From Clytia hemisphaerica (taxonomy: Eukaryota), in the NCBI RefSeq assembly GCF_902728285.1, contig NW_027103286.1, forward strand, positions 3,356,497 to 3,420,496: 64,000 bases of DNA, read 5' to 3'. A program made the position numbers and the translations under genes. Positions within the stretch are counted from its first letter, which is position 1. Every line of letters begins with the position of its first letter. Of this stretch, positions 28,003-52,040 are shown piece by piece. The notes below the pieces were generated by a model. It saw nothing but the letters and a program-made list of their open reading frames with translations. It searched no databases and had not been told where the DNA came from.

Positions 28003-30080
28003 ATGCCTGATAACATCGATCCTCTGAATCTCTTCAGAAAATCAAGTCTTAATATAGCTCATTTAAACGTGAATGGCCTTAGGTCGAAGCTTTATTTCTT
28101 AAAACTTCTCCTTCACCAAGAAAAATTTGATATTCGATGTCTGAATGAGACTAAAATTGACTCGACAATCACTGATAGTGAAGTCTCTATACCTGGGTAT
28201 TTACCCTGTAGGCTAGACCGCGAACATTCTTTCACGATGATTGATCCCAATTTTTCAAATAGCCCTCACGCTAAAGATTGTTCAATTGCTAATATTGGAA
28301 TAAGTGACCATTCAATTGTTTTTCAAAGAAGAGAGAAACCAATATCAATAGACCAAGGACCATAACCGCCAGGTCCTTTAAAAACTTCAACCAAGAGGCT
28401 TTTCTCGAAGACCTAGGGAATCTCGACTGGTCTGACATGCTCAACTCTACTAATGTAGACGAGGTGGCTGATATCTTTAACACCAATGTGCTAGATGTAC
28501 TTGACCGTTATGCTCCTATGGTTTAGAGAAGGATAAGTCATGATAGCCCTCCATGGGTCAACGAGGTACTACTTAATGTTGAAATTCTTAGCCGATCTCA
28601 ATCAGGTTTCCGAAACAAGTATTCAACTGATACAGCAGTTATTTGTGTGTCAGACTTTATATTAGAAGAGCTTGGGAAAGGGAAGTATGTTGGGACTGTA
28701 TTAGTAGATCTCAAGAAGGTCTTTGACACAGTAGATCATAAAATTCTTTTAAAGAAATTATTCTGCTATGGATTTAGGGACTCCTCATTCTCCTGGTTTG
28801 AATCTTATCTGTCAGACCGTCTTCAATGTACACTCCTAGGAGATACTTGCTCGGACATGATGAACGAATGCGCATACGGGGTTCCACAAGGATCGGTCCT
28901 CGGACCATTGTTATTTCTCCTTTATATAAACGATATTGGTCAAAGTATTCGACCTTCTGTGTTCCACTATCTTTACGCAGACGATACCATCATTGCTGTC
29001 AGTTCTGACTGCCCCGTGAGGCTTAGAAAAGATCTATCTGGCCAACTTTCTGAAGTCGGACATTGGTTCAGCCAAAATAAACTCACGGTAAACACGGGCA
29101 AAACCGAAGTCATATATTTTGGAAGAGCAAACAAACTGAAGGAATGCAAGAGGTTGGTCCCTATCCAATTTCAAGGCGACACTCTTGAATGCAAGGAGAA
29201 AATGAAATATCTCGGTGTCATCTTTGATGAAAACCTAAAATGGGATGCCCAGGCAATAGTGCTCGCCAGAAAGCCTATCTCAAACTAAACAAAAGGCATC
29301 TCTAGCTTTCTTGAAGATCACATGAAAAAAATGCTTTTAAATGCTCTTGTTATGCCACACATTACATATTGTTCCAATTCTTGGAGCACTATGTCAAAGG
29401 CAAACCACAACAAGTTTGATTCAGTCCTGAGCAACATCTCTAAAACCATGCCCATCAATAAGACACAAGTATGCAAGGACGTGAAGGTCGAACCGACATC
29501 GACCACCTTGTCAGGGGAGACTTTTGAAACTAAAACGACCAACATCCAAGACCATGCTCGTCTCGACATTGCTGCTAGGGGATTTTGGATTCCTGGCCAG
29601 AAGGCATTCTTCGACGTAAGGGTTTCAACCCAATCGCCAAAAAGTTCAGGAATTCCACTATCTCCAAAGCATGCAATGCAAACGAAAGGGATAAAAAGAA
29701 CATTTATAATTCAAGAATCATGAAAGTTGAGCAACGTCTCTAAAACCGTGCCCATCAACAAGACATTTGATCAGATTGTCGAATACAATAAAACACTGAT
29801 GATGTTCAAAGGGATGCGCAACATTGCGCCAAAATATTTGTGTGATCGGGTAAAGCCTGCTAGCGAGCGACATGAACGCCGCACTCGCTTTGCAAGAGAG
29901 AATAAAGTCTTTGTCCCTCTTTCCAAAAACACTTTTGCTAGTCGAACGTTCATTACCTCAACCACACATCTGTGGAACAATCAACCTTTAGAAATAAAAC
30001 AATGTGAATCCCTTTTATCGTTTAACACTATTTTTATTAGGGGGGTGTTTTCCACAAGCCTAGCACTCTTTTGCTAATAA
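28003..30080 (+). mobile_element. Decayed CR1/L2-like LINE (EN fragment 28003-28365, RT fragment 28647-29288, C-terminal region 29322-30077), with internal deletions and a short internal duplication.
   Basis: EN: LNIAHLNVNGLRSKL...IRCLNETK. RT: GTVLVDLKKVFDTVDH, AYGVPQGSVLGPLLFLLYIND, YLYADDTII. C-terminus: LNALVMPHITYCSNSWS. A duplicated block LSNISKTMPINKTQ (29440) / LSNVSKTVPINKTF (29730). Confidence 0.8.
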
Positions 30081-31204: not shown

Positions 31205-31450
31205 TTTATCCATAAGAACATCCAAAATTTTTGAAGCCTTCGGATGTTCTTAACTTTTTGAGTTTATAGCCTAAGAATATTCTTAACATGTTCTTGTTTT
31301 CACCGATTTTTGAGTATTTTTGTCCATTTGCCTAAGAAATCAGGTGTTTTAGAGTCCGCGAAGCCTTAAAATATTCTTAACCTGTTCTTAGTATTTTGGC
31401 CATCGAAGCCTTATGTTCTTGTATAGTTTGTTCTTATGGAAAAACGTGTA
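31205..31450. repeat. 'aagaacat' short interspersed repeat (MITE/SINE-like); other copies at 47520-47720, 51790-52040 and 55215-55500.
   Basis: Shared blocks ...gccttcggatgttcttaac...aaaatattcttaacctgttcttag.attttggccatcgaagc.ttatgttctt...aaaacgtgta... Confidence 0.65.
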
Positions 31451-31653: not shown

Positions 31654-34600
31654 ATGCAGAGAATATTTTTGTTAGTGCTGGTCGTTGGATTGGCAGCTTG
31701 CCATCGAAGGCATAAAGGTAAGGAATTTTGAATGATTAGTATTTTTGAGCACTGTACTATGCAATTTGTTTTTAAGGAAACACCCACTTTGAAAGAAACA
31801 TAATCGGGTGCAAGAATTAGACAAAAGTAAGGGTAAGACATCACTTCCTGGACTAAATATTCACATTCCATAGACTTTGTCGGGACATTTCCGCTGTTTT
31901 TTTTAAGATAACCGGCCGAAAATTGTAAAGGGTTTTTTCCAGATTTTCTTTATCAGATTGGATGATGCTCGCCGGATATTTAGTCTTTTTTTCGCTGAAG
32001 AATAGCAGTGGAATTTTAGTCCGGAAAGTGAATGACAAGTGAATAACAATTTCGTTTTATAAAAAAATTATTTTCCTTCATTAGGGGGCAAAGAGAGATG
32101 GAGAGAGACAAATGAACGCTTATCATTCCAACTTCCAAACGGTAATGACTTAAATTTCATGAAATATTTTGATCAAAATTTAAAAACGAAGTACTGGAAA
32201 ATAAATTTTCCATCTGTTAGGTCGATTTCTAGCGTTTTCGAGCACTTTCTGAAAGTAACTTTTTCATTTAATCGAGTATAACTTTTGATCTAATGAATCG
32301 GAATTTTAAGATTTCGAGAAAATTAGTCTCAAAGAGAGGCGTACCCCCCGGGGGGGGGGGGGCACTCGATCTGAAATCGACCATACGTTCGGCCCAAAAT
32401 TTGGCTTCTAAAATCGGACCCTTACAGTGCAGTGAATTTCCATGAAAAAATCATACCCTTTCAGTGCACTTTTTAAAAATTTCTCGCCCGTAAGGGCGAA
32501 AATTTTTGCAATTTTCCAAGAAAATGTGGAAATTCTCCTCCAAAATTGACCAATTTTGTGATAATTTTACCAAAAAATTGGCCTTTTACCAAAATTTCCT
32601 ACCCTTACAGTGCAGTTCAGTGCAGTCTTGTAATTTCATACCCTTACAGTGCACTAGCTGAACTATGAAAAACCTACCCTTAAGGGCCGAACGTCTGGTA
32701 GGTCATTTACCTTGAGTGCCCCCCCCCCCGGGCGTACCCGCTACTTTTTCCTAAAGTCAAAGTTTCATCGATTACAGGATATTTGTTGAATCTCGTAAAT
32801 CAAGACAAATTACTATATAGATAAAATTAATCTTCCCTTACAGAATGTAAAATAGCTATCCATACCAGCGATGAAACATGTCAAAAGGATAGACTGACCG
32901 ATATTGCGAGGGCTCGATATTGGTACATACTTTCAAATGAAAACACCAACATTGATTTCCCTTTGGCTCATGAAATCCCATGGTTGGCCCATAACTTAAC
33001 GGCGGTTAATTACTATTACGCATTGGATCCATTCGAATCGCGATACATGGTACTTCTCAGCACCTGGATTTCCGCTATTATCACCACAATTACGCCAGCC
33101 ATAACCAAGGCTTTCGCAGGTGTCTCTTTCGAGTCCAACCAAGAGTATGTTGCGTGTTATGGTGCTTTCCAGAAGGCCATACAGGTACCAGGCCTAAAAC
33201 TTCTTACAAACGTAGTACATGAAGCAAAGGACTAAGGTCGTTTAGAATTCATGTAATACAGAAATATGGATGTTATATGATAATACAATACTTGTTAAGG
33301 GATATAATATTAGTTTGTATACAATTGACTATAATTTGTATACCATCATTTTTTTGCTTATTTTCTAAAATGTCTGAATTAGTCGTAGCATAGAGGTCAA
33401 TAGACCTGCGAAATATATTGCTATAAAATAAAATGCTAGACTAAGGATAATCAGGACTGGATAATATGAAGTTATGTATGATTTATAATGACAGTTTATT
33501 ATGAAGCTTAACCCTATTAGCCCCAAGCTTTTTTGACTTTTGTATCCCCAGGGGGGGGGGTAGAATCTACCACCGTCGATTATTTTCGATCTAGAAGAGC
33601 TATGGCCATGAAATTTGGTACAGATGTTCTCCATCATGATACAATTTTCCAGGAAGAAAAAAAAATTTGATTAAGTCATTCAAAAACTGATGACGTCATC
33701 ACAAAATTTCAACCTGTCGGAAAAAAGCCCAAATATATGGTTTACAAAAATGTATATTACAGTCGAACCAATAAAGATATTTCAATTATGTTTGAAGATT
33801 CTGAAAGATAAAAGACTGTTCTTTAACATAATTGCCGGTTTCGCAAATTCCATGAAGAGTTTTTCTTAAAATCTATGCTGAAGATGAGTAAAATTTTCAA
33901 AATTTGATGACGTCATAAATGATGACGTCAGCATTTTCAAAAATTTTCTTTTAATTTTTTAAATTTGTATTATCAATGCCTATCACGTGTCAAAATTTGA
34001 AAATGATTGAATAAATAGTTTAGAAGTTATCAGCACTTTAAAATTTTGAGTTTTAAGCGATTTAAGCTGGGTTTTATGTCATGTTTCACAATAAAGTCAT
34101 AAAACCTGATCTGGACAACCTATGACCCTAAAATTATGCACAAGTACTCGTAATAAGATTTTATTAAAAGTCAGAAAGTTTCAAATCGTTTGAAAAATTT
34201 TTCTCCGAGATATAAACAAAAGAACTCCAGCGTGGTAGATTCTACCCCCCCCTGGGGCTAATAGGGTTAAGAAGACTCCACTTTGGAATTTGTTTATGGA
34301 ATCCCATTCTCAGTAAAAAAAGATTCCTTTCACAGTATAAGACCACGTTCACACGCTACGTTCCGTTTCGTTCCAAAACGAAACGATTCCGAAACACTGT
34401 GTGAACGTCAAAATTGGAAACGTCAAAAAAGCAGACGTTACAAAGCAAAACAGATCGAAACGGTTTCGCTCCGCTATTTTCATTGGAACGGAACTGCTCC
34501 GTTTTCTTGCTCCGAAACGTTCCGAAATGAGTATGAGCACTTCCTATCCGTAACAATTACCCAACAAATACCACACCGGAGCGATACGAAAGCGTAACGT

Positions 34601-37600
34601 CTGAACATGGTCTTAGATTTAATAAAAACTTCTGTATTTTCAGGCGCTTCAAGCCCCGCAATACTTTGGCAATCCTGCAGAGTATCCCGACTTTACGGAT
34701 CACATCACCAATGGTTATTACCTGGAAGACGATGCGTTTGTTCAACGAAGACTTGCGGGACAATGTCCTTTCCTCATTCAAAAAGTCATCACTGAGGGTA
34801 AAAAACATCGCACATACGTTTGACTCTTGCTAATTCGAACTATAGAAATAATTTTTAACTGTTTTCCTCTTAATCGGATTATAGAAAGATTCGAATAATA
34901 TAAGATCGAATTAAAGAGAGCCGGCACTGCAGTGAAAGATATCCGAAAGGGTCCCAAAAAAGGAAACATCTGACGAAAATTGAACACAAAATTTCATCTT
35001 TTCACATCACCATTTCTTTTGTTCTCTCTGATTTTCATTTTTCAAATTTCCTGATTCATTATCCTCATTTATTGACAGGTGAGAGAGGGTTCAAGCTGGA
35101 CGATTTGATGCCTATGTTGAACCAAGACTTTTTTGAGACGTTCGAGATGAAATATTCCGATGAAATGGTCACCATGGAAGAGGTATTTAATAGACTAGTT
35201 TATAATCCTCGTAAGACAGTGAATATGGGTAGTGTATGATAATAGGATGGTTGTTAAGGGGTAACATTAGTTTTTATAAAGTACTATTATAGACTAAAAT
35301 AGACCTTATCGGAGTTTTCTATTTTTCTAAAAAAGCGAGGAATTCCTAAGAGATTTCTATTGTAATACACTTGAAACAATCCCACAATGCATCGCTTTTT
35401 CAGAAAAATCAAAAACTCCGATAAGGTCTATTTGTCCCTTCTACTATCTTTTGGTGATTTTCTACAGTGTCCGAATTAGTTTTCTCCAGTCGTTTGGTAC
35501 CTTCAATCATACATCAGAGTCTTCATGTAGCTCAAATTTCTTTAAAGTTTAAATACATTTTCCGAGCCTTCAGTTAAAGTGAAGTACTCTCTGAACTAGT
35601 CTGATTCGCAGACCTAAACAAACCACAGATGTGAATACCAGCAGCCTTTATCTGTTCTACATAACAGTTTTGCGTACCCTGCATGTGTTTGGGTTCTATT
35701 AGACTGGCGCGCCAGTCGGGCTGGAACGGTATCACACGGGAGAAGTGAGCGCAGGAGTTAGGTAAGTGTAGGAAGAAATTTTGTCGGCGGCAAGGGCTGA
35801 AAGCTGTTAATCAGCAGCCTCTCAGCAACTTTTACTTGTTCTCCTACGCAGCTCCTATTTCAGCAAACGCCGCCGCCTTTATGTTCCCACTCTCTGACAT
35901 GATTAATCAACAGACTAGTTTGCTAGTCTAGGGTTCTAGAAAAGGAGCTATATGGTTCACTAAAGTTCATATCTTAAAGGATCTTCCTTTCTGTTTCAGG
36001 CCATCAATCATCACCGTCTGTTCGTCCTCAATTTACCGAACATGAAGGACATCCAGAATGCACCGGACGCTCACGGTGATCTGTACACCGACCGTAAACT
36101 CTCTCCTCTCACTTCACCGATCTCATTCTTTCTGTTGGGAGATGATGGTTTGTTGAAACTGGTGGCCATCCAAAGATATCCCAAATCATGTAAGTAGACC
36201 TTTTCTTTTAGCTGAGCGAGACCAATCTTTTCTTTTCACCCTCTAAATTAACAGCTATTCACTTCCTTTTTAACGTTGTCGTTAAGCATCAACGTCTTTG
36301 AAGAAAATTGAAAATATCAGTACTTCAAATTCCTTATCGTTCCAGCTTCTGAAGTGTACACACCATCAAGTGAAAAGAACATCTGGTCGTTGGTCAAAGG
36401 AGAAGCTGAGCTCGCATCTGACATGTACTGTCAATCAAAAATTCACTTAGGAGGCGTTCATTTCGTGTCCACCATCTATTGTTTGTCCTTTAGACGACAT
36501 TTAAGCACCAAACACCCTCTCTACGATTTCTTTAAATACCATTGCGAAGGGACTGTCCCTCATATCACCACAGTCTTCGGGACTTTGACCACCCCCAATA
36601 GTTTGGGTAGCAAGCTTTACGGAATGGGAAGTGAAGGACTCGTCAAATTAGCCAAACAGAGTTATGATGAGAGAAATTATGAACACTCCACCTTCGACTT
36701 CTTCATTAGGGTATGTATTTTTTTCTACTTACTTTGGAGTCTATATGACACACAGGAACACTACTTTGTTCGAGTCACGGAAACTTTTAGATAGGGAACA
36801 AAGTTTAATAGGCATTGATTGTTAACTGAAGGGACAAGAAAACTTGTTCGAGTGAAGGAGACATTCGAGTTGTACAGGTGAGAGTTAAAAAGACTCGATT
36901 CTGTATACGTAAACTTTATTTTTAGGAAAGTCTCGAGGTGTAGTTTTTACCTTTATAGCGGTAATCGAAAAGAGGGGTAAATCACCGCACTCCATAGCAT
37001 AGTGAGCTCATTGTGGATATATAGATATGGTTAACCCTAGAATATGCTATCGTCTAAGACAAATCACCATCTAAGAAATAAGCCCAAAGCTGAAGAAAAT
37101 TCGCAAACAGGCTTTTTTGCTGAAAAGAGTTTACAACTGGTAGAGTTTGTCAGTCTTCGAAACTCTCCCGCCGATTTTTTTCTGTATACCGCCATAACGC
37201 CAAACCGCCCTATTTTCCCGCTTTTACTATCACTGTAGACGATAACATCGTCTAGGTTAACCCTCGCCAACCTTCTTTTTGTTTTACCAGGGTCAAGGTT
37301 TAGACGATACTCGAATCAAGTATTACCCTTTCCGTGAAGACGCCATTACATTGATGGGAGAGTTCAACATCTTCATTGAAAATCTTCTGAGGCGTTATTA
37401 TGGATCAAATTCTCATCGCGTCCGCGCGGACAAAGAATTGCAATCATGGGTGAACGAATTGTCCATTGATGGGAAAATTCAACCTGATGGCGGAAAAGGA
37501 AAGGTGAGAGAGTGAAGTCATTTGAAATTTATCCCTAGTTTTTGACGTCTAAGAATTAATTAGTCACAGAAGTGAACAATGAATCTGTCAATTGTTTTTA

Positions 37601-38786
37601 ACTTTGGACTACATCACAGAAAAATAGGGAACTTTACCGAGAAAACTTAATTACTACTTACCACAAGTCCTGAAAATTGTTCTTTCGATTCAACGCTGGA
37701 TGGTTTACCAGCAAATCAACTTGTGATCTCTAAAGACGAAAATTTATCTAATTTATCTACCTTTATCTAATTCCCTTTTTAGGTCATTGCTTTCCCTTCA
37801 TCTTTCCGTTGGCGAAGTCAGTTAAAGACTTTCTTGCAACGTTTCATGTGGATGAACATTTTTCACACGTCAGCAAATTATTACACACACCGAGATTTCC
37901 TACCAGCTTCTCCAAGTAAATTTTACGAACTGAACAATGGAACACAGCTCCCTTATCTTCAAGCACTCTCTGGAAAAGCATACAATGTTGTAAGTACCTT
38001 TTGTTGTAGTTAATCTAAATGATAAACTTCTGGGCAACCATTTCTTTGGGATATTTGTAATTACAACTTTCAGTCCTTTCTGCTACTAAAATTTGAGAAA
38101 AGAAACAACACAATTTTAATGATTTCGAAATTCAAACTCTGAGTGCCATAGTCGTTTATAATTCATCTAATACAGTAATATGTGTCTTACATGATAATTA
38201 CGATAATTGTTCCTGGATAAAACCGGTATCAGTTTGTCTTAACGACTGCAATTTGTTATTTTTTGCTTATTTCTCTTTACTATGTCTGAATTAGTCATCT
38301 AGCATACTACATTATAAGTGCCCAACTACTCTGTACCAGAAAGTAACGGGGTGGTACAGTCACTTTCGGTCGGGGTTGTGGACGGCGAAATATGTCGTTT
38401 TTATGAAATTTGTCGTTCTTTTTGTCTATTTTTAGTAATGCAGGATTCTTTAGATAAACCCCTCCACTCACGTTTATCATTTCTACGGAATTTTGAAATT
38501 AGTCCGTAGATATCCGGTCTGTATTTAAACAACTACGATTTTTTTCTTATAGGAATATATGAGATTCGAAGGAATGTTGAACAATTTCCGAGTGAACAGA
38601 ATTTTCTCATACTGGAAAGACATCACAAACCCGACATACCGACGAATTGTGCGCAAAGCTTTTTATCGTTTGAACACCATCGTCCAAAAGAAGTTAGAAA
38701 CAAGAAATGCTGAACGTAAAGCCAAAAATCAATTGGGTTATCAAATCATGGAACCAAAATGGCTGACGAATAGTATTCATATTTAA
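31654..38786 (+). CDS. Lipoxygenase gene A: nine exons, 623 aa, with a signal-peptide-like first exon, no recognisable PLAT domain and all iron-ligand motifs present.
   Basis: Exons 31654-31717, 32844-33184, 34644-34797, 35079-35182, 36000-36189, 36346-36710, 37291-37503, 37783-37989, 38553-38786. All junctions are GT-AG and phase-consistent; 1872 nt = 624 codons. LOX motifs: DDAFVQRRLAGQCPFLIQKV (DxxF..QRLAGxNP); SPISFFLLGDDGLLKLVAIQ; IHLGGVH (His-x4-His); FHTSANY (His-x3-Asn); ELQSWVNEL; C-terminal ...LTNSIHI with the terminal Ile iron ligand. Exon 1 MQRIFLLVLVVGLAACHRRHK is hydrophobic and signal-like. Confidence 0.85.
32335..32750. mobile_element. Palindromic MITE in LOX-A intron 1. Its TIRs contain C/G homopolymer runs (gcgtaccccccgggggggggggggcactcga...acgttcggccc) and the internal motif cccttacagtgcag is repeated.
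   Basis: Left 32339-32395 versus the reverse complement of right 32690-32748 (gggccgaacgtctggtaggtcatttaccttgagtgcccccccccccgggcgtacccgc). Confidence 0.65.
33512..34281. mobile_element. MITE in LOX-A intron 2 with ~45-bp TIRs containing a G10-11 run (cttaaccctattagcccca...ggggggggggtagaatctaccac).
   Basis: 33508-33570 versus the reverse complement of 34228-34281 (gtggtagattctaccccccccctggggctaatagggttaag). Confidence 0.65.
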
Positions 38787-39699
38787 AATATATCTAAAAT
38801 ATTTTTATAAATCTTTATAATCTTTATAGAAATGCTTACCCGGCAGCAAATCTTTGTCTTTAGTTTTGTGTAATTTCTCATTTTCTCATTTTTTTATTCT
38901 TGTTATTTTTCCTAAATACTTCATCTGAAAAAAATAGAAAGAAATAAAACGTAAGTTAACTACATCAGGTGTAAACAATATTTTGACTGACTCGAAAGCC
39001 CATACCGTCGACCCTGTGTATATCATACCCCCAACCCTCTGTGTGTTACCTATCAAGGAAGAATTTTTCACCAAAAATAATTTGCTCTTTTGAGCTTTTG
39101 AAACATAAAATAGGCGTTATTTGAAAAATATCATTTATTTTGTTGAGGTTGCAGTCTCAAACCTAATAATCAGTTTAGTCCTCATTTTGCAACATGCAGA
39201 TAAGACCTGACCTTCTCAAAAATTACAGTGCTCTGAACTATCTTTTCAACGGTATATTGTGTGTTAAATTTTTCTCGCAACCATTAAATTTTGGGAATTT
39301 TAGCAAATTCGTGAAAATCACGAAAAATTCTGGCTGCTAAAATTTCTGACATTAAAGCAATAAAATTAACTGTTAAGAATGAATATGTTAAATCGAGGAA
39401 TGCATAGGAGAACGAAATCACATCACAATCAAAATGAAAAGCGGATCGGATCGAAAGCGGAACAATTTTCAGGAAATGAGTAGTCTAGCAAGCTAGACGA
39501 CTAATTCAGACATATTAGAAATAAAGCAAAAAAGTAAATTTTAGTCGTCTATAAACCTTTGTGCACTAACTCCAAACAATAAAAAAAGTGTCAATATCGC
39601 AATTAAAATTTTTTCCTGCTCAAAAAAAATTCTTGAAAATAAAATGTGTGTGGATTTGTCTGTTAAAAATGTTTCATTTGAGTTGATTTTATTTTGAGA

Positions 39700-39940
39700 G
39701 TTTCAGGAGTTTGTTATTGCTTAATAAATTTTTTTCTCGCTACGCAAGTTTCTGCGTAGCTAGGCCCGGTATCTATAAGACTGGAACACCGGATTCTTCC
39801 AGTCGTTTATACAAACTAAATCCCGTATTATTATTTGTGTTTATTATTAGTATTACATGCATTATAAACGACTCCAGTCTAGGAAATGAGGAAAAAATTA
39901 AATTTTCGGACATGAAACTAAACTTCGCAAATCAGTAAAG
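39700..39940. repeat. Cluster of short palindromes in the LOX-A/LOX-B intergenic region.
   Basis: cgctacgcaagtttctgcgtagc (39738-39760); gactggaacaccggattcttccagtcgtttata ... tataaacgactccagtc. Confidence 0.5.
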
Positions 39941-40414
39941 AAATATCATAGATGTCAAATTCGATATTAATTGGCTTTTCGTCGGCGCGTTGATATATTT
40001 GAAACTTTTTTTGGACAACCTCTAAACGGGAATAAGGGTCCATGTTTACGATTTTTGAAAGACCTGTTTTCTACAACAAGGTAGTTTGAAAATTGATGCA
40101 AAGTTTATCTTGCTTATCATTTCGATCCAGAGAGGATTCTCATAGTAAGAGACCTGCCATGCTTATGGCCATCTTTTCAAAAGTTCCTTCAATATTTATC
40201 GTTTACCTAAGCACTAATCGGTCGATTTGGCTCAATTTCGTCATTATTTCAAGATTTGAGTAATCAAAATAATTTCAATGCCGAGTGAACTTTGGAAAGA
40301 TTAAGTTCGCACATACGGTCGTTTTTAAATCGATTGCCCCCGGGAATTTCGATGCTTTCAGACTTTTTGTTCTTTAAAAAGGTTCAAAATAGATATACAT
40401 TTTAAGAATTGAGT

Positions 40415-40680
40415 TTAGAGCCCCGAAGGGGCTAGAGATGAGTCTTCAACCTTTCTCAAGCAAGAAAAAGTGAAGCCTTAAGATTTGCGCCGCATTTAGA
40501 ATGACGGATTAAATCTAGCACTTTCTTTGTTATCACGTGGCATATTCTGGCGATATGTTTTACTTTCAATCTAGCGTTTGTGTGGAAACTACGCGGGTCA
40601 CGCATCTAGGATGGGAAATAAGTGGCTTCATTTCCCATCCAGGAGTCCCGTGTCTAGCCCTTGGGGCTTGGAAATCAATG
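40415..40680. repeat. Repeat with palindromic ends (agccccgaaggggct / agcccttggggct); its core is shared with 49840-49910.
   Basis: ttttactttcaatctagcgtttgtgtggaaactacgcgggtcacgcatctaggatgggaaataagtggctt at 40548- versus ttttactttcaatttggcgtttacgtgaaaaccacgcgggtcacgcattttggacgggaaataagtggcttt at 49840-. Confidence 0.55.
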
Positions 40681-41072
40681 ATTTTAATAGTATATGAGTT
40701 TCACCAATACATGTAAACTCGAATGCAGAAGCTTATTTCATTATTCTTTGGTAGAGCACTCACTAAAGTACCAAGGGCCATCAAAAAAATCAAAAAATGG
40801 TTCAAATGGCTCTGGGTGGGAGATTGCAAGCCAATACACCCGCTTTATCGCAACGTTAGCTTGCAACACACTTTGGAGTGTAAAAAAAGAGGTTTAGTCT
40901 TAATTTTCTAATATCAATTACGCATTAACTTGAAATCGAAAATGGGATTTCGGAATTAATATTTGTATCTTAGGTTAAATAAAGAAAATTATAAGATTAT
41001 TAAACGATTATTAAATAAGCGATAAATATGGACAAAAAAATCAAAATAAATGATAGCTTGGTTGAAACATTT

Positions 41073-44000
41073 TCAAATATGGACGCTATTTGTCAGCCAT
41101 TTTGGTTCCATGATTTGATAACCCAATTGATTTTTGGCTTTACGTTCAGCATTTCTTGTTTCTAGCTTCTTTTGGACGATGGTGTTCAAGCGATAAAAAG
41201 CTTTGCGCACAATTCGTCGGTATGTCGGGTTTGTGATATCTTTCCAGTATGAGAAAATCCTGTTCACTCGGAAATTGGCCAGCAAACCTCTGAACATCAT
41301 ATATTGCTGAAAAGGAATTTAATTTTCAAATTAATTATATAGATATGGTATTAACAAAACCCATGCGGCCAAGCGACCAAGCCCTGTAAACGGTCTAAGT
41401 TATAACCTAGGATTTGTAGATATAAAACACCCTATTGGTTTACTCAACTTTCAGCTGATAGTTTGAAAGTCTTCAAATGAAAACCACATAATGAGGCCCC
41501 CCCAGCGGTTGGCGTGATGGCGTGATGGAGGGTTTTTCGTGGCGTGATGGCGTGAAATTTTGAAAAAAAACGGCGTGATGGCGTGAAAATGAAGTGCCGG
41601 CGTGATCGTGAAATCGAGATTTTTTAGGCGTGATGGCGTGAAATTTTCAGTTCAGCGTGATCGTGAAATTATATTTATTAGTTGAATTGTATTTCTATGT
41701 CCATTTTAGCCAATTTAGAGGGTTTAAATTTCAAAATTTTCTTGGTCGGCCCTAACTATGGTGGGGCCTCCTATAGATTAGATTTCATTTTAAAACATAA
41801 AAGAAACGGTGCAAACAGTTCTATTCATCTGTCATTTATCCTTGTAACTTCTGATTGTTTTTAGCAGTTGCTAGCTAGTCTTCAAAATAAAGTCGAATGC
41901 TATGAGAGGGTCGAAAATTGAAATTTTTTCCCGTCAGCGAAAACCATGGTTGCGCTTTCTCCGTAACTAACATTTCCCTCTCTTTCTTAGATGCTTATTC
42001 TTAGATGCATCCAAGACATCAGGTCCTTTATTTCAGGAAAATATACATTTGTAGCAAAGCCATAAACAGAAAGAAGCAACAGGTTTATTATGAGGGTGTA
42101 ACTTAAGCAGATTGATCAAAAGAATCTGTGATGTTTAAACCATATTTTGGAAAAAAAGAGAGTAAATGAGGGCGATTTTAGCCATACTAAATTAAAAATT
42201 TCTCCTGTCGGTGCAAACCATGGTTGCGCCTCCTCGTTCCCCTTTTGAAAACTTTTCACGCTAATTCACAATTAATGTACTTTTAAAAGATTTCCATTAT
42301 TTTTACATGAGTTATTTTTCAAATTGAATTGAAATGGATCCCAAAATAGCACTTTGAACCCTTCAAAATTCAAAAATTTTCTCCGTTACCCAACCATGGT
42401 GGGCTTTGTCAATTTACTCAAACCGGTGCCCTTTGATGTGACCAGTTGTCCAACAATGTTTTATATGCATAAGTCAAGATTACGTCATTTTTCCTATCGG
42501 AAACACCCGAAAAAACTGGAATTTACCCCTGTGTATTACTAAAAATAGAAAAACAGATGTCAAATTTCTTCCAGATTTTTCGGGTGTTTCCGATAGGAAA
42601 AATGATATAATCTTGACTTGCTTACGCGTATGAGAATGCCGATGAAAAACTGATTAACGACCAAGCACATACCTATTTGTGTTTATATATAACAAAAATT
42701 ATGAGCATGAAAATAAATTTTCTAGGCGTAATGGCGTGAAATCGAAAGAAATTGGCGTGATCGTGAAAATCAAATTTTTCAGGCGTGATGGCGTGAAATC
42801 GAAAAAAAATTGGCGTGATGGCGTGAATTTTGGGTCCGCTGGGGGGGCCTCCATAATATACTCACAACATTGTAAAGTTTCCCAGTAAGAGCTTTCAATA
42901 AGGGCAGGTCTGTTCCATCTAGATTTTGATAAAGTCTAGTGGGTGAAGTTGGCATGAAATCTCTGTAATCAGGATAATTTGCTGAAGTGTGGAACAAGTT
43001 AATCCACAGAAAGCGTTTTAAGAACGTCCTCAACTGATCGCATGTTTCGAACTTTGCTGGAAAACCTTTCATCTAAATGAAATAACAATAGAGATATTGG
43101 CTGGGAAGAAGAAGAAGAAAATATAAGCGCGAAAACAAATTTCAGGTGTCGGAAGTGTATTCAAAGAGATACATGTAAGGAAGAAGGTCAAAAATTGAAA
43201 CTCTTCATTTTTAGCAAAACATTGTCTTGAGTTTCGAGTTTGGTAATACACTCTCAAAGCCAACGCAGACCTGTTACGCACTGGGAAAAAAACCCAAAAA
43301 TTAAACCCTGGTAAACAAATAATATCCAGTTGAAAAGCTTTAATTTGGAAAATGAGACATGGGTTTGGTGACATTTAAACACATTCCACACCTTTCCTCG
43401 CCCAGCATCAGGTTGAACCGTTCCTTCAGGCGACAACTCGTTAGCCCATGATTGTAATTCAGCGTCCCTGTGAATTCTTCCTCTTCTGTAATAAGTCTTG
43501 ATGATGTCATCGATGAAAGTCTCGTATTCTTTCATAATTTCTTTGACGTCATCACGGAAAGGGTAATATTTAATGTCCTCGTCATCCAAACCGTTACCCT
43601 GGAAACGCAAAATATTGGATTCTTTAAAACAAGATTCTAAGGGATAGTTTCAAAGTCGGTAAGAAATATTATGTACGCATTCTAGATCATATTATGAGTA
43701 AATTTACAATTTTGCATAAGCCATTTAGTTTAAAAAACTACCCCAGGTCAAATCTTAATAAAGGTAAAACGCCTTTACGCATTGTTCTTACCTCAATGAA
43801 ATCTTCATAAGTGTTGCTTTCATAATCTCGTTCTGCAAAAGCTTTTTGCGACAAATCAAGAAAACCTTGATTCCCGGTTCCGTAGATGACACTACCCGCA
43901 GCATTGGGTGTGGTCAAAGTCTCAAAGACTGTGGTGATATGAGGGACAGTCCCTTCACAATGGTGCTTAAAGAAATCATAGAGGGGGTGCTTGGTGCTCA

Positions 44001-46545
44001 AATGACGTCTAAAGGACAAACAGTAGATGGTGGACACAAAATGGACTTCTCCGAGATGTATTTTAGCTTGACAATAAAGGTCTGATGCCATCTCAGCTTC
44101 TCCTTTAGCTAAAAGCCAATTGGAACTTTCTGGTGTATCAACTTCGGATGCTGGAAAAAAAGAAAAGTTTTAAATACTAGCTTTCAGTTTATTATCTCAG
44201 TGCTTTGTAAAGTGATTGTGCGGAAAGAAATCTTTTTTTGTTTTATAGAATTACAATCGAGAAAAGATGTTTTCGTCAGTAGTTACTTGGATCAAGTTTC
44301 CTCTTCCACTCAAATCCCATACCTAATCAAAGATAGAGTTCAAACATACTTTGAACAGGATTTCTTTGGATCGCAACTACGTGTAAAAGTCCGTCATCTC
44401 CCAACACAAAGAACGATATCGGTGACTTGACGTCAGCAAGTTTGCGATCTTGCAATAGCGGTGCGAATACGTCGGGTACGTTTTTAATGCCCACCATTTC
44501 AGGGATGTGAAGTACAAACAATCGGCCGTCCTCAATCGCCTATAAATAAAAAATAAATACAAAGTTTTGAAAAGTTGAATCTTTCTCTATTTGATTTAAG
44601 GCAGCACAATAATGACTGGGTTCTAAGAGCCCCCCGAACGGTTTGTGTGATGACGTGATAAGGACTTTTTTGTAGCGTGATTACGTGATTTGGATTTTTT
44701 TTTGCGTGATTGCGTGATCAGAGGTCAAAACGTGATTACACGAAACGTAAAAATTTTTTGAGCCATGATACGTGATTTGGACTTTTTGGACTTCGTGATC
44801 ATGATTGAAGACAAACAATTGTGTCATATCGTGATCAGAGTTACCGCTAGGGGGAGGGGGGGGGCTGTTCTAAATTTATACTCGTCGCGAAAGCAATAGT
44901 TTAATAAAAAAGTATTTCTGGAAGAATTAAATTGTAATTACCTGTTCAATAGACACAGATTCTGTAGCAGAATATTTCATTTCAAAGTCTTCAAAGAATT
45001 TGGTGTTGACTAAAGGTTTCAAATCGTCCACGTGGTAGCCTTTGCCATCTGTAAGAAGAAATATTTTTCTGTTATTGAATTTAAAAAGAAGATATGGAGG
45101 AAGGTTAGCATATGGTAGTGTTCACTTCTTTAAAACTTCGTTGGGGAAAATTTTCGTCGGGGAAAAATTCGTCACTTGCTGGTAGTTGGTAAACGCATTA
45201 AGGCCGGGGAAAATTTTCGTCAGGGAAAATATTCGTCACTTATCCAAAATTTCGTCACTTTTTCCCGACGAAGTTTTCCCTGATAAGGGGCATACGAAAT
45301 AAGAAAAAAAAGAAAAATCATCTCATGAAGATTTCTTCAAGGTACCTTCATCATCAACGACTTTCTTCAAGAAGTAGGGACATTGACCAGTCAATCTTCG
45401 TTGAGTAAACGCCTCGTCAGTTTGCCAGTGACCCGTCAAAACATGGTCTGTGATTGTAGGGAATTGCGATGGGTTGGCAAAATATTGTGGTGCTTTTGTC
45501 GCCTACACCAAAAGAAGAAGTGAATAATTTATTTTTAAACATGAAATGTCGGAGAGAATAAAACTTCCAGAAATGTTCTAGAAAACTCTCAATGTGATTG
45601 AAAAGATAAGTAATATCGGGACACAACAAAATCATTTGTTCAAGTTGTGCAAATAGAAAAGCGCACAGATGAAGAGGACAATTAAGAAAAAGATTTTCTC
45701 ACCTGAACAGATTGCTGCCATGCTTTATAAGCAATCGCATATTCTTGCGGGCTTTCGAAAGAAGTCGTGTTAAAAGCAGCAGTTAAACCAGGGAAGACGG
45801 TGTTTAGCAATATGTTTGTCCACGTTTGAAGAAGCACTAAATGTCTCGATTCAAATGGATCCAAGGCGTAATAATATTTGGTTTCAGATAGATTCTGCGC
45901 TAACCAGGGAATCGTTGAAGCCAAAGGAAAATCAATGTTGGTGTTTTCATCGGAAATTTTGTACCAATATCGAGCTCTTGCGATATCGGTCAGTCGCTCT
46001 TTCTGACAGTTACGACGTGCACCGACTTTGACAGGACATTCTGATAAAAAAACGAGAAATGTTTAAAAAAATAACGACACTGAATTTTGACTCTTGGGAA
46101 AAATAAGATATAAAAAATATGTTTGACCCTTAACGCGTGAACCTTACTTTTGCCCTATTCCCTGTGTTAAGGCGAAAATTGGGCGGATTACGTTAGAAAC
46201 TTCAAATCACTCACCTCTTGGTATTGAAGTGCGACGAGAAGACCTGTGGGATCTTTTATTCTTCCAGCGTCCCAACACCATCTTTGTTAATTTTGCCAAA
46301 TCTTCGTCTAATTCTGAAATAGAAACAAAATTATAATCTTTAATACAAGTTGGCTGATAGTTTGAAAATGTTCCACATACTAATGATTAAAAGAGTTAAC
46401 TATCGTCACGCATGAAAATATTTCTCCTTTTTTAGGCCTGGGGAAAGACGTAAATTAAACAACACTTACTCGTTTCATCCTGGTGAAGTGTGGAATGACA
46501 TTGTGCTACCACCACACATGCAAGTAGCAGGGTTACAACCTTCAT
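41073..46545 (-). CDS. Lipoxygenase gene B: nine exons, 624 aa; a paralogue of LOX-A in convergent orientation, with a signal-peptide-like first exon.
   Basis: Exons (minus strand) 46470-46545 (ATG 46545), 45703-46040, 45346-45502, 44942-45048, 44350-44539, 43792-44150, 43392-43598, 42866-43072, 41073-41306. All junctions are GT-AG and phase-consistent; 1875 nt = 625 codons. Motifs: DEAFTQRRLTGQCPYF; WLLAKGEAEMASDLYCQAKIHLGEVHFVSTIY (His-x4-His); FHTSANY; ELQSWANEL; C-terminal ...LTNSVHI. Confidence 0.85.
41494..42850. mobile_element. Foldback-type element in the last intron of LOX-B. Its inverted termini (gaggcccccccagcgg / ccgctgggggggcctc) are followed by subterminal tandem 'ggcgtgatggcgtgaaat' repeats.
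   Basis: 41494-41680: gaggcccccccagcggttggcgtgatggcgtgatgg...ggcgtgatggcgtgaaatttt.... 42715-42850: ...ggcgtgatggcgtgaaatcgaaaaaaaattggcgtgatggcgtgaattttgggtccgctgggggggcctcc. The internal motif 'aaattttctcc.tc..aaaccatggttgcgc.tcctc' recurs at 41895, 42195 and 42370 (and at 3120). Confidence 0.6.
42480..42610. repeat. Hairpin (inverted repeat of ~45 bp with a ~40-bp loop).
   Basis: caagtcaagattacgtcatttttcctatcggaaacacccgaaaaa ... tttttcgggtgtttccgataggaaaaatgatataatcttgacttg. Confidence 0.7.
44625..44870. mobile_element. MITE related to the 41494-42850 element (gagccccccgaacgg...cgtgat-type repeats...ccgctagggggaggggggggg), in a LOX-B intron.
   Basis: Termini gagccccccgaacggtttgtgtgatgacgtgat and gttaccgctagggggaggggggggg; internal (c)gtgat(t/c)(a/g)cgtgat tandem motifs. 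Confidence 0.5.
45120..45290. repeat. Palindromic repeat (cgtcggggaaaaattcgtcac / gtgacgaaatttt..cccgacgaag) in a LOX-B intron.
   Basis: Inverted repeats of 'ttcgtcggggaaaa(a)ttcgtcac' on both sides of ~45210. Confidence 0.5.
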
Positions 46546-47519: not shown

Positions 47520-47720
47520 AATATTTGGAGCCTCCGGTTTTCAGTTTAAAGCCTAAAAATGTTCTTAACCTGTTCTTATTATCACCATTTTGTGAGTATT
47601 TTTGTCTACTTTCCTACAAAAATAGGAGTGTTCTGAACTTGTTCTTAATACTGTATTTTGGCCATCGAAGCTTTATGTTCTTAATGTTTGTTCGTATAAA
47701 AAAAACGTGTATTTGATAAA
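47520..47720. repeat. 'aagaacat' interspersed repeat copy.
   Basis: aaaatgttcttaacctgttcttattatcaccattttgtgagtatttttgtc...ttttggccatcgaagctttatgttctt...aaaaacgtgta. Confidence 0.6.
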
Positions 47721-48362: not shown

Positions 48363-49690
48363 CTAAATATAACTATCAATAACATTTTTCCATTCCACAC
48401 GATTCAAAGCTTTCCCATACCACTCACATTTCAATATACCAACTTTATTCAAACTTTTGTAAACTCCACGCCCATACGTGAATTCAGGGGCCCCGCGTGG
48501 GCGCCTTTCGCTAACCCAGCATGTCAGCATCTTACGGGGCAAACGATCAGAGGGCATTCGGGTTACGTGCCCTAACCAGCGTAGTTGGCGACGTGTAACA
48601 TATACATCAATAGAGAGCAAACCAGTGCGCTCAAGCAATTCAGCCGTCGAAATTCGGTGGGATCTCACATGATTTAAGTTAACACGGCATATGGTGCGGA
48701 CACAACGAGCATGAAAAACTCTCAACTTTCTATAAACAATTTCAGTAAGGCACCAGTGCTCAGAGCCATATAACAAAATCGCCAGAACAATGCCTTCGTA
48801 GACAGATTTTTTTGCTGCGAACGAAACATTAGTAGAACGGAATAAACAATTTCTCAAAGCTCCAAACGCACTGCTGGCTGCTTTTATTCTCGACTCGACG
48901 TCAAGGGTATCTTTACAATCACGCGATAGGATTGACCCCAGGTAACAAAAACGATCGACGATCGGCATATGGGATGCATCATCGATTTTGACATTACCAA
49001 GATTCGTATTATCGAAAGACAGGGGATCGGTATAGGTTTGGTTCGGAGCAGAAACAAACAAAATTTCAGATTTAGAGCTTTTCTCTTCGGTACCAACATG
49101 GATTTCTAGACCGAATCTTAGAAAATGCTTGACTAGTGGTGGAAGGTAGGTTTCGACAGAGCTTCTTGATGTGAATAGAACTCCGGTATCGTCAGCATAC
49201 TCAGAGTCCGGTAACGAAAACTGTTCACATTTTTTAGTTGAAGGTCGTCTACCGGTTAGGATATCGTCAAACTTGGTGTGAAAGATACAGACTTCTCGTG
49301 TGTGAGTGGTTCTCCAAGATATCATTACAGCAGCAAGGTAGAAAATGAAAAGGAGTGGACCCAGTATATCACCCTGTTTGACACCAATTATACTTTCGAT
49401 CCTTTTAGTGATGTCATTTACAACAAACTTAACTTCCACATTTGCGTGAAGTGATTTAAGCAGACGTACAAGTTTATCAGGGACACCAAAAATATATAAC
49501 ACTTCCCAGAGAAGCTCGCGCGGTACTCGATCAAAGGCTTTGACCAGGTCGAGAAATAATATCCAAGTCTCTTGGCCATGTTCCCTGCGCTTTTTCATTG
49601 CCATTTTTACTGTGAAGATCCCGTCAACACATCCACGCCCAGGACGAAAGCCGCACTGGGGTTCATGGTCAAGGATCTGCTACCACCTCA
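48363..49690 (-). mobile_element. 5'-truncated non-LTR retrotransposon fragment (RT domain, RTE/L2-like).
   Basis: 413-aa ORF 48363..49604 with FLDLVKAFDRVPRELL, GVKQGDILGPLLFIFYL, EYADDTGVLF. An upstream extension QILDHEPQCGFRPGRGCVDGIFTV (to ~49690) ends abruptly, as expected for 5' truncation. Confidence 0.85.
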
Positions 49691-50395
49691 AGCAAAGCCA
49701 AAAAATGGAATTGGCCAAATTACACCGGGCTCACATCAGCGCCATTCAGTTTATCAAAAAGCTATAAGTCCCCGGGCTACGCATTAACATTTCTTTGTTT
49801 TTAGCGGCATATTTTTCGAAACCGGGCGATGGGTTTTACTTTCAATTTGGCGTTTACGTGAAAACCACGCGGGTCACGCATTTTGGACGGGAAATAAGTG
49901 GCTTTGAAATCAATGGTGAAGGCATCCAAGCTCCCGCGGCCTCTTTCTTAATCCCCACGTCCAATGTCTATTGAACATAAAGCATGAGTTTTAATCACTC
50001 TTAGCCCTCGCTTACAGACCAGGTTCCTGATTCAATTGATAATACTATGATAATGTTTATTCAATTTATCCAAGAAAATTAAATAAATCCACTCCACTTT
50101 TTTGATCTTACTGGTATTTACACTAGGTAGTTTGATTGAACAGGTTTTTTTTCGTTTTTTTTTATTGAAGAGTAATCATTTAAATCAGTTTAATCGATCA
50201 AAATCAAGTTAAAATGGTAAAAGATAAAGGCCACTTTGATGTTGAAAATGCAAAATTATGTCCCTTATAACACCGGCTCTCAATCTACTGCGACCAAAAA
50301 ATAACGCTAATATCAGCCAGCGTAAAAAAGGACTGAGAAAGTATCAAAGTTATTGTTGGGGAGTCTTATAATAAGTAGCTTTCATATCCCATAGT

Positions 50396-51789: not shown

Positions 51790-52040
51790 AAAACAGATTA
51801 TACGATGGCGAAAGTGTTAAGAACAAGTTAAGAACATTTTAAGGCTTTGGCGACTTTTAAACACCCGATTTCTTAGGAAAACGGACAAAAATACTCAGAA
51901 AATGCTGAAAATAAGAAAATAAGAACATCTTAAGAACATTTTTTGGCTTAAAATCAAAAAAGTTAAAAGCATCAGAACATCCGAAGACTTCAAAAATTTT
52001 GGATGTTCTCATAAAAAGAAGACGTGTATGGACTGGAGCA
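51790..52040. repeat. 'aagaacat' repeat copy (reverse orientation) just upstream of SOCS-box copy 1; the same repeat sits upstream of copy 2 (55215-55500).
   Basis: Reverse-complement match to the 31205-31450 family; 51730-52060 is ~95% identical to 55130-55500. Confidence 0.6.

Follow-up and report, generated by a model that had tools for sequence, protein, structure and literature searches.

In a 64,000-nucleotide stretch of the Clytia hemisphaerica genome (contig NW_027103286.1, positions 3,356,497 to 3,420,496 of the forward strand; hereafter the window), two lipoxygenase genes lie tail to tail. We refer to them as gene A (31654..38786, + strand) and gene B (41073..46545, - strand). Our analysis indicates that interlocus (ectopic) gene conversion between these old tail-to-tail paralogues has very probably homogenised a 186-bp stretch of their terminal exons. 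Recent gene conversion had been put forward in the original prediction, and it is supported here by a collapse of synonymous divergence in the homogenised core, by an unlinked paralogue that serves as a control, by a conserved block in exon 7, by a flip in topology and by the finding of 0 fixed differences between the genes in the core against 402 in exons 4-9.

A repeat search of the window recovered an inverted repeat with arms at 38551-38788 and 41071-41308, each 238 nucleotides long, which are 92% complementary and have 2282 nucleotides between them. The arms are the last coding exons (exon 10) of A and B, and a direct comparison revealed 19 mismatches in 238 nucleotides. In gene A, exon 10 (38553..38786, + strand) is 234 nucleotides long including its TAA stop and encodes the final 77 amino acids, ending in ...TNSIHI. 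Exon 10 of gene B (41073..41306, - strand) likewise measures 234 nucleotides, including a TGA stop, and encodes a final 77 amino acids that end in ...TNSVHI. The last-exon peptides originally quoted for the two genes (EYMRFEGMLNNF... and QYMMFRGLLANF..., identical thereafter except for an isoleucine/valine exchange) proved correct on direct comparison.

The mismatches are unevenly spread along the exon, with 10 in nucleotides 1-29, 4 in nucleotides 30-215 and 5 in nucleotides 216-233 (4 before the stop codon and 1 within it). This defines a core of 186 nucleotides that holds 4 mismatches, is 97.8% identical and has sharp edges. The original prediction had described a near-identical inverted repeat of ~235 bp; the repeat itself is real, but near-identity is not uniform along it and is confined to this core. 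In gene A, the core occupies 38582..38767 (+ strand; exon-10 nucleotides 30-215) and differs from B at 38600, 38621, 38669 and 38694, all four differences being synonymous. In gene B, it occupies 41092..41277 (- strand), with the corresponding sites at 41259, 41238, 41190 and 41165. The two ends of the exon, comprising its first 29 and last 19 nucleotides, diverge by about 35%, in line with the gene background. The unconverted 5' end of exon 10 in A (38553..38581, + strand; B partner 41278-41306) carries 10 differences in 29 nucleotides, 10/10 of which are fixed between A-type and B-type alleles, and the unconverted 3' end (38768..38786, + strand; B partner 41073-41091) carries 5, including the isoleucine/valine exchange and TAA/TGA. 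Past exon 10, the 3' untranslated regions (3'UTRs) of A and B are unalignable, as is intron 9.

Chance is excluded as the source of the similarity in the core. A 50-nucleotide core probe has exactly 2 matches in the window, compared with 0 in 100 shuffles, and no third copy of the core was found in the window. In permutations of the longest near-identical segment, p = 5e-5 was obtained with synonymous codons only and p <= 5e-4 with all nucleotides. Elsewhere the two genes have diverged as the original prediction held: for the other exon pairs, identity is 51-70% at the amino acid level and 60-74% at the nucleotide level, with 59% amino acid identity over exons 3-9. Seven further exon pairs were detected as inverted repeats, which are merely 70-80% complementary. 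We rejected a reading of the locus as a palindrome, given this level of complementarity and the lack of alignment between the introns and 3'UTRs of A and B.

Synonymous divergence, which had been proposed as a check on the last exon, is clearly lower there than in the other exons. We compared A and B by Nei-Gojobori (NG86) counting, where pS and pN are the proportions of synonymous and non-synonymous differences and dS and dN the corresponding divergences. Taken one by one, exons 3-9 have pS of 0.56-0.78, pN of 0.19-0.31 and dS ranging from 1.0 to saturated; pooled, they yield pS 0.656, pN 0.272 and dS 1.56. For exon 10 as a whole, pS falls to 0.204, pN to 0.046 and dS to 0.24, and for its core the values are 0.104, 0 and 0.11, respectively. 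The 16 flanking codons of the same exon return to pS 0.66, pN 0.214 and dS 1.59. The core thus contains 4.0 synonymous differences over 38.3 synonymous sites, with a dN of 0 (Fisher p = 3.6e-11 against exons 3-9). Codons with a conserved amino acid are themselves identical in 59/67 cases in exon 10, whereas elsewhere this holds for 169/309 (p = 1e-7).

To place these values in context, we used paralogue C, an unlinked Clytia gene represented by the metatranscriptome complementary DNA L001 (protein P0003), which falls into the same 90% cluster as XP_066927166.1. Against paralogue C, the pS of exon 10 is saturated, at 0.84 for A and 0.80 for B, and amino acid identity is 58%, within the range of the other exons. 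Since exon 10 behaves in this comparison like every other exon, it is under no general synonymous constraint. A second control lies within the pair itself. A block of exon 7 (A334-383) is 92% identical between A and B in amino acids and yet has a pS of 0.47 (p = 5e-4 against the core). Protein constraint alone is therefore ruled out by the exon-10 pS against paralogue C together with the pS of the exon-7 block. As an observation in its own right, the pS of this block (window 36400-36600 and 43900-44100) lies below that of most other exons (0.6-0.78), which could reflect an older conversion or codon preference.

In comparison with a further relative, paralogue E (P0020, XP_066931969.1), which lies on a different contig and was compared as protein, the core and the remainder of the gene tell different histories. 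Over exons 3-9, B and E are 64% identical, A and B 59% and A and E 56%; 981/1000 bootstraps place B and E closest. The first 10 amino acids of exon 10 follow the same order (B-E 70%, A-B 50%). A and B reach 100% identity in the core, compared with 73% for B and E. Judged on these identities, the core groups A with B and exons 3-9 group B with E. Among other, unlinked Clytia paralogues, amino acid identity in the core reaches only 52-73%, which indicates that only the adjacent inverted pair has been homogenised. In Hydra, the P0005 locus shares the exon structure, and protein conservation is highest in its terminal exon (74-78% against 43-61%). No paralogue lies within 10 kb of the Hydra locus in either direction, and so this locus offers no parallel case.

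Wild Clytia transcripts were recovered from marine metatranscriptomes via a metagenome-contig scan and a protein-cluster look-up. They include three B alleles from three samples (L004, L007/L008 and L009/L010), for the latter two of which the JGI and Logan assemblies agree, and a single A-type contig, L003. The protein clusters of A and B, listed in full, held no additional alleles, and a protein search with exons 9 and 10 of A for short wild fragments with an A-type 3' end returned none. All three wild B alleles have B-specific sequence flanking the core on both sides. Within the core, the A state is present in wild B alleles at 4/4 of the sites that differ between A and B, compared with 17/620 in exons 1-9 (p = 1e-6). 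Across six alleles, we counted 402 fixed and 0 shared sites in exons 4-9, compared with 0 fixed and 3 shared sites in the core. Moreover, the core of window A lies 3-4 nucleotides from the wild B alleles and that of window B 5-8 nucleotides, so that core sequences are not sorted by gene.

Allelic diversity within B is also distributed unevenly. Between wild B alleles and window B, pS is 0.055-0.066 in exons 1-9 and rises two- to threefold, to 0.105-0.168, in exon 10; p for the individual alleles spans 0.008-0.36, and the difference is significant for 2/3. Raised allelic diversity of this kind is an expected by-product of conversion that brings in variants. The core dS of 0.11 between A and B is of the same order as the allelic pS in exons 1-9 of B, which supports a recent date for the conversion. 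With regard to the number of events, the patterns lend moderate support to exchange that has been recurrent or is ongoing, and we consider this likely. The ongoing conversion envisaged in the original prediction is supported to this moderate degree, in that core sites are shared and unfixed and the diversity of exon 10 in B is raised. Set apart from these comparisons, 3/3 wild B alleles (P0013, P0017, P0019) carry a 6-amino-acid deletion (TVFESAGTVIYG) relative to the reference TVFETLTTPNAAGSVIYG in exon 7 of gene B (window 43990-44010 region).

Several points weigh against gene conversion as we read it. No conversion event was seen directly. The three shared core sites hinge on L003, which is possibly chimeric, with a core derived from B reads. 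Without this contig, a single recent conversion followed by later mutations on the lineage of the window-B allele fits as well, and "ongoing" is to that extent unproven. Given the 6-amino-acid indel and a pS of ~0.06 relative to the reference, the wild contigs may derive from a sibling species or from a population that has diverged. The topology test is a comparison of protein identities rather than a model-based tree. Finally, exon 10 is conserved above the family average, by about 10 points of amino acid identity; this accounts for part of the protein identity of the core but not for its synonymous identity.

The alternative that survives best, although we hold it improbable, is a one-off replacement, in which a single recent conversion or an unequal or inversion-type crossover copied the core and the four differences arose as later mutations. 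It departs from recurrent exchange solely in the number of events. Leaving L003 out of account, one can interpret all four differences as polymorphisms of B against an ancestral A state; T69, C117 and C142 occur in the window B allele only, and G48 is found also in L009/L010. A single event sits less easily with the raised allelic diversity of B in exon 10 relative to its other exons, or with B alleles that are mosaic at site 48. Taking L003 at face value, both the T117-T142 and the C117-C142 haplotypes are present in both genes, which likewise speaks for more than one exchange.

Selection offers a different kind of account, which we judge very unlikely. Here the core would be held constant by purifying selection on the protein combined with a nucleotide-level function, such as an exonic regulatory element, mRNA structure or a long double-stranded RNA formed by read-through from one gene into the other. 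Exon 10 does encode the conserved C-terminus, whose somewhat elevated conservation was noted above; the terminal isoleucine is an iron ligand in lipoxygenases. The two arms, if transcribed into one read-through RNA, are predicted to anneal at about -375 kcal/mol. However, an AATAAA motif in the spacer between the genes lies 157 nucleotides past the stop codon of A, the wild B contigs end 98-155 nucleotides past theirs, and there is no transcript evidence for read-through. Selection on exon 10 is also contradicted by the saturated pS of this exon against paralogue C (0.80-0.84), by the 52-73% identity of other Clytia paralogues in the core protein and by the exon-7 block, which keeps its pS of 0.47 at 92% amino acid identity. 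The flip in topology relative to paralogue E stands against it too. Moreover, the core sites that differ between A and B are polymorphic, with the same alternative states in the other gene, a pattern that constraint would not predict.

An assembly collapse or a misplaced terminal exon in the reference can be practically dismissed: near-identical repeats are a classic source of mis-assembly and a further B-like gene (P0002) lies on another contig of the assembly, but each exon lies in unique flanks that cannot be aligned with those of the other and has retained its own diagnostic 5' and 3' ends, and gene models from 2019 (P0001, P0016) as well as the wild transcripts L004 and L007-L010 join the same exon to gene-specific upstream exons and 3'UTR.

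As to how gene conversion would have produced the homogenised core, we infer non-reciprocal copying from one inverted copy to the other during homologous-recombination repair. Within the pair, no homologous segments lie further inwards than the terminal exons, which could align on a single chromatid or across sister chromatids. The gap between the two copies of exon 10 is 2.3 kb, compared with at least 4.9 kb for the other exon pairs, and it is plausible that exon 10 alone stays in exchange because it is the closest pair of homologous segments. Tracts would end where the diverged flanks block extension of the heteroduplex (heteroduplex rejection), which would fit the sharp edges of the core. 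There is a weak hint that copying may have run from B to A, since the core is 73% identical to paralogue E, which matches the trend for B and E better than that for A and E.

The spacer between the two stop codons (38787..41072) measures 2,286 nucleotides and contains both 3'UTRs. It shows no similarity between its A and B sides and no convincing open reading frame (ORF), only short chance ORFs; a gene or structured element in the spacer was considered and rejected because the ORFs there are short and chance-like. The inverted, highly similar pair 2.3 kb apart that the original prediction described is present, with the 97.8% identical core as its most similar part, and it is reasonable to regard the repeat as a formal substrate for inversion of the spacer. 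In this regard, contig L003 (1-1685) deserves attention. It spans sequence matching window 34550-38786 and 40950-41306. Its 5' part starts in intron 3 of gene A and is A-type through exons 4-9 and nucleotides 1-29 of exon 10, and its 3' part consists of a window-B-like core, B-type last codons, a TGA stop and 124 nucleotides of the B 3'UTR. A crossover within the core would place exactly this arrangement on gene A. A de Bruijn assembler that jumped from A reads to B reads within the common core could yield the same contig. L003 could thus be a transcript of gene A on an inverted or crossover haplotype or an assembly chimera, two origins that are indistinguishable here. The reciprocal product, with a B 5' part and an A 3' part, was not present among six B alleles.

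It is conceivable, if rather doubtful, that the core is an active crossover site and that the spacer inversion segregates in wild Clytia, with L003 as its gene-A transcript. If so, the two lipoxygenase genes would exchange their final 6 codons, their stop codons and their complete 3'UTRs through the inversion, and post-transcriptional control by the 3'UTR would be re-assigned between enzyme paralogues by a small structural polymorphism.

Interlocus conversion is documented in nematodes, flies and humans, where it is recognised by short tracts, by polymorphism shared between loci and by elevated diversity within the tract (PMC3966223, PMC3924832). Among adjacent inverted animal paralogues, it has been described for the hsp16 and hsp70 inverted pairs and fog-2/ftr-1 of C. 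elegans (PMC3966223) and in Drosophila (PMC3924832). The Clytia pair resembles these nematode and fly pairs in consisting of neighbours in opposite orientation, in having a near-identity tract of tens to hundreds of bp within diverged genes, and in showing polymorphism common to both loci and allelic diversity raised within the tract. Unlike them, the Clytia paralogues are very old, with saturated dS and 59% amino acid identity, and their tract lies inside one exon with both sides unalignable. They also differ in belonging to a cnidarian and to the lipoxygenase family.

Two further systems invite comparison. Human RHD and RHCE, tail-to-tail paralogues with exon-sized conversion in cis, represent a similar arrangement. 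RHD and RHCE are young, ~97% identical throughout and separated by ~30 kb and one gene, whereas the Clytia pair has just 186 bp that are still similar and a spacer of 2.3 kb. Primate Y-chromosome palindromes have inverted arms, a short spacer and intrachromosomal conversion, with near-identity over kb to Mb that includes non-coding sequence. The inverted arrangement, the short spacer and homogenisation are common to the palindromes and the Clytia pair, but the Clytia introns and UTRs share no similarity. A literature search found no earlier description of conversion in Clytia lipoxygenases. The locus is a clean new instance of a well-known textbook process and opens no new question.

For work on these genes, the homogenised exon has practical consequences. 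Including the last exon will lead to wrong phylogenies and divergence dates for Clytia lipoxygenase paralogues, as A and B then look like sisters though B is nearer to E elsewhere. Short reads, probes, 3' tags from single-cell RNA sequencing and transcript assemblies of A and B are prone to mis-assignment or chimeras over the 186-nucleotide core. Expression of the lipoxygenase family has been reported in 'putative eicosanocyte' cells of the planula, which are putatively eicosanoid-producing (bioRxiv 10.64898/2026.02.16.705741). The pair also provides a compact natural test case of a conversion tract that persists in paralogues otherwise saturated with substitutions.

The identity of the two genes was established with a query built from conserved open segments of the window, which matched Clytia lipoxygenases. 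We rebuilt both gene models by tblastn with Clytia lipoxygenase proteins as guides and a search for GT/AG junctions. Gene A has 10 coding exons (31654-31717, 32085-32141, 32844-33184, 34644-34797, 35079-35182, 36000-36189, 36346-36710, 37291-37503, 37783-37989 and 38553-38786, + strand) and encodes 642 amino acids, with a translation identical to XP_066920200.1 (P0010). Gene B likewise has 10 coding exons (46545-46470, 46313-46215, 46040-45703, 45502-45346, 45048-44942, 44539-44350, 44150-43792, 43598-43392, 43072-42866 and 41306-41073, - strand) and encodes 657 amino acids, identical to XP_066920211.1 (P0014). Both accessions are on one NCBI contig of 3.97 Mb. All introns are canonical GT/AG, and both genes are intact and convergent.

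Both proteins match the lipoxygenase catalytic domain PF00305 of Pfam, with scores of 73.9 bits for A and 70.1 bits for B against a curated cut-off of 23.6, and in both the match starts near residue 180. The best relative in the PDB is the coral 11R-lipoxygenase 3vf1 (E = 8e-20). Lipoxygenases bind iron through a His/His/His/Asn set and a terminal isoleucine. We tested the corresponding pattern, consisting of a histidine pair in HxxxxH, His/Asn in HxxxN and a C-terminal isoleucine (or valine). H337, H342, H524 and N528 are invariant in an alignment of eight sequences, and A and B both end in isoleucine. An N-terminal PLAT/LH2 domain is typical of animal lipoxygenase architecture; no match to this beta-barrel domain was found in A or B at E <= 0.01. 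The N-termini of A and B (MQRIFLLVLVVGLAAC and MKVVTLLLACVVVAQC, respectively), encoded by exons 1-2 (window 31654-32141 and 46215-46545), are hydrophobic and resemble signal peptides. This build, with a hydrophobic start and without PLAT/LH2, is common to all Clytia and Hydra relatives retrieved and unusual among animal lipoxygenases. The B-like third gene P0002 (XP_066919919.1), which lies on another NCBI contig (3.47 Mb), differs from window B by 9 amino acids, including T630A within the core. P0002 has no A-like partner on record and could be a haplotig or an extra copy.

Elsewhere in the window, an uninterrupted ORF of 1141 amino acids at 19797-23222 (+ strand) has a repetitive N-terminus rich in glutamine, threonine and proline, with tandem repeats of 24-108 nucleotides at 19763-20250. 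The GC and AT-skew anomaly at 20-24 kb is explained by this ORF, which is probably one large exon of an unrelated gene. Reverse-transcriptase-like ORFs lie upstream of each lipoxygenase gene, at 28003-29723 (+ strand) and 49263-49658 (- strand), with ~26% mutual protein identity; they are the remains of non-LTR (non-long-terminal-repeat) retrotransposons. Clusters of short repeats of the GGCGTGATGGCGTGAAAT type occur in introns of gene B at 41513-41660, 42708-42829 and 44642-44718. Dispersed repeats that are 80-86% identical are found at 31256-31350, 47538-47632 and 51842-52018 and also at 40549-40628 and 49825-49904, one copy being located within the spacer between A and B. These dispersed repeats are probably small transposable elements.

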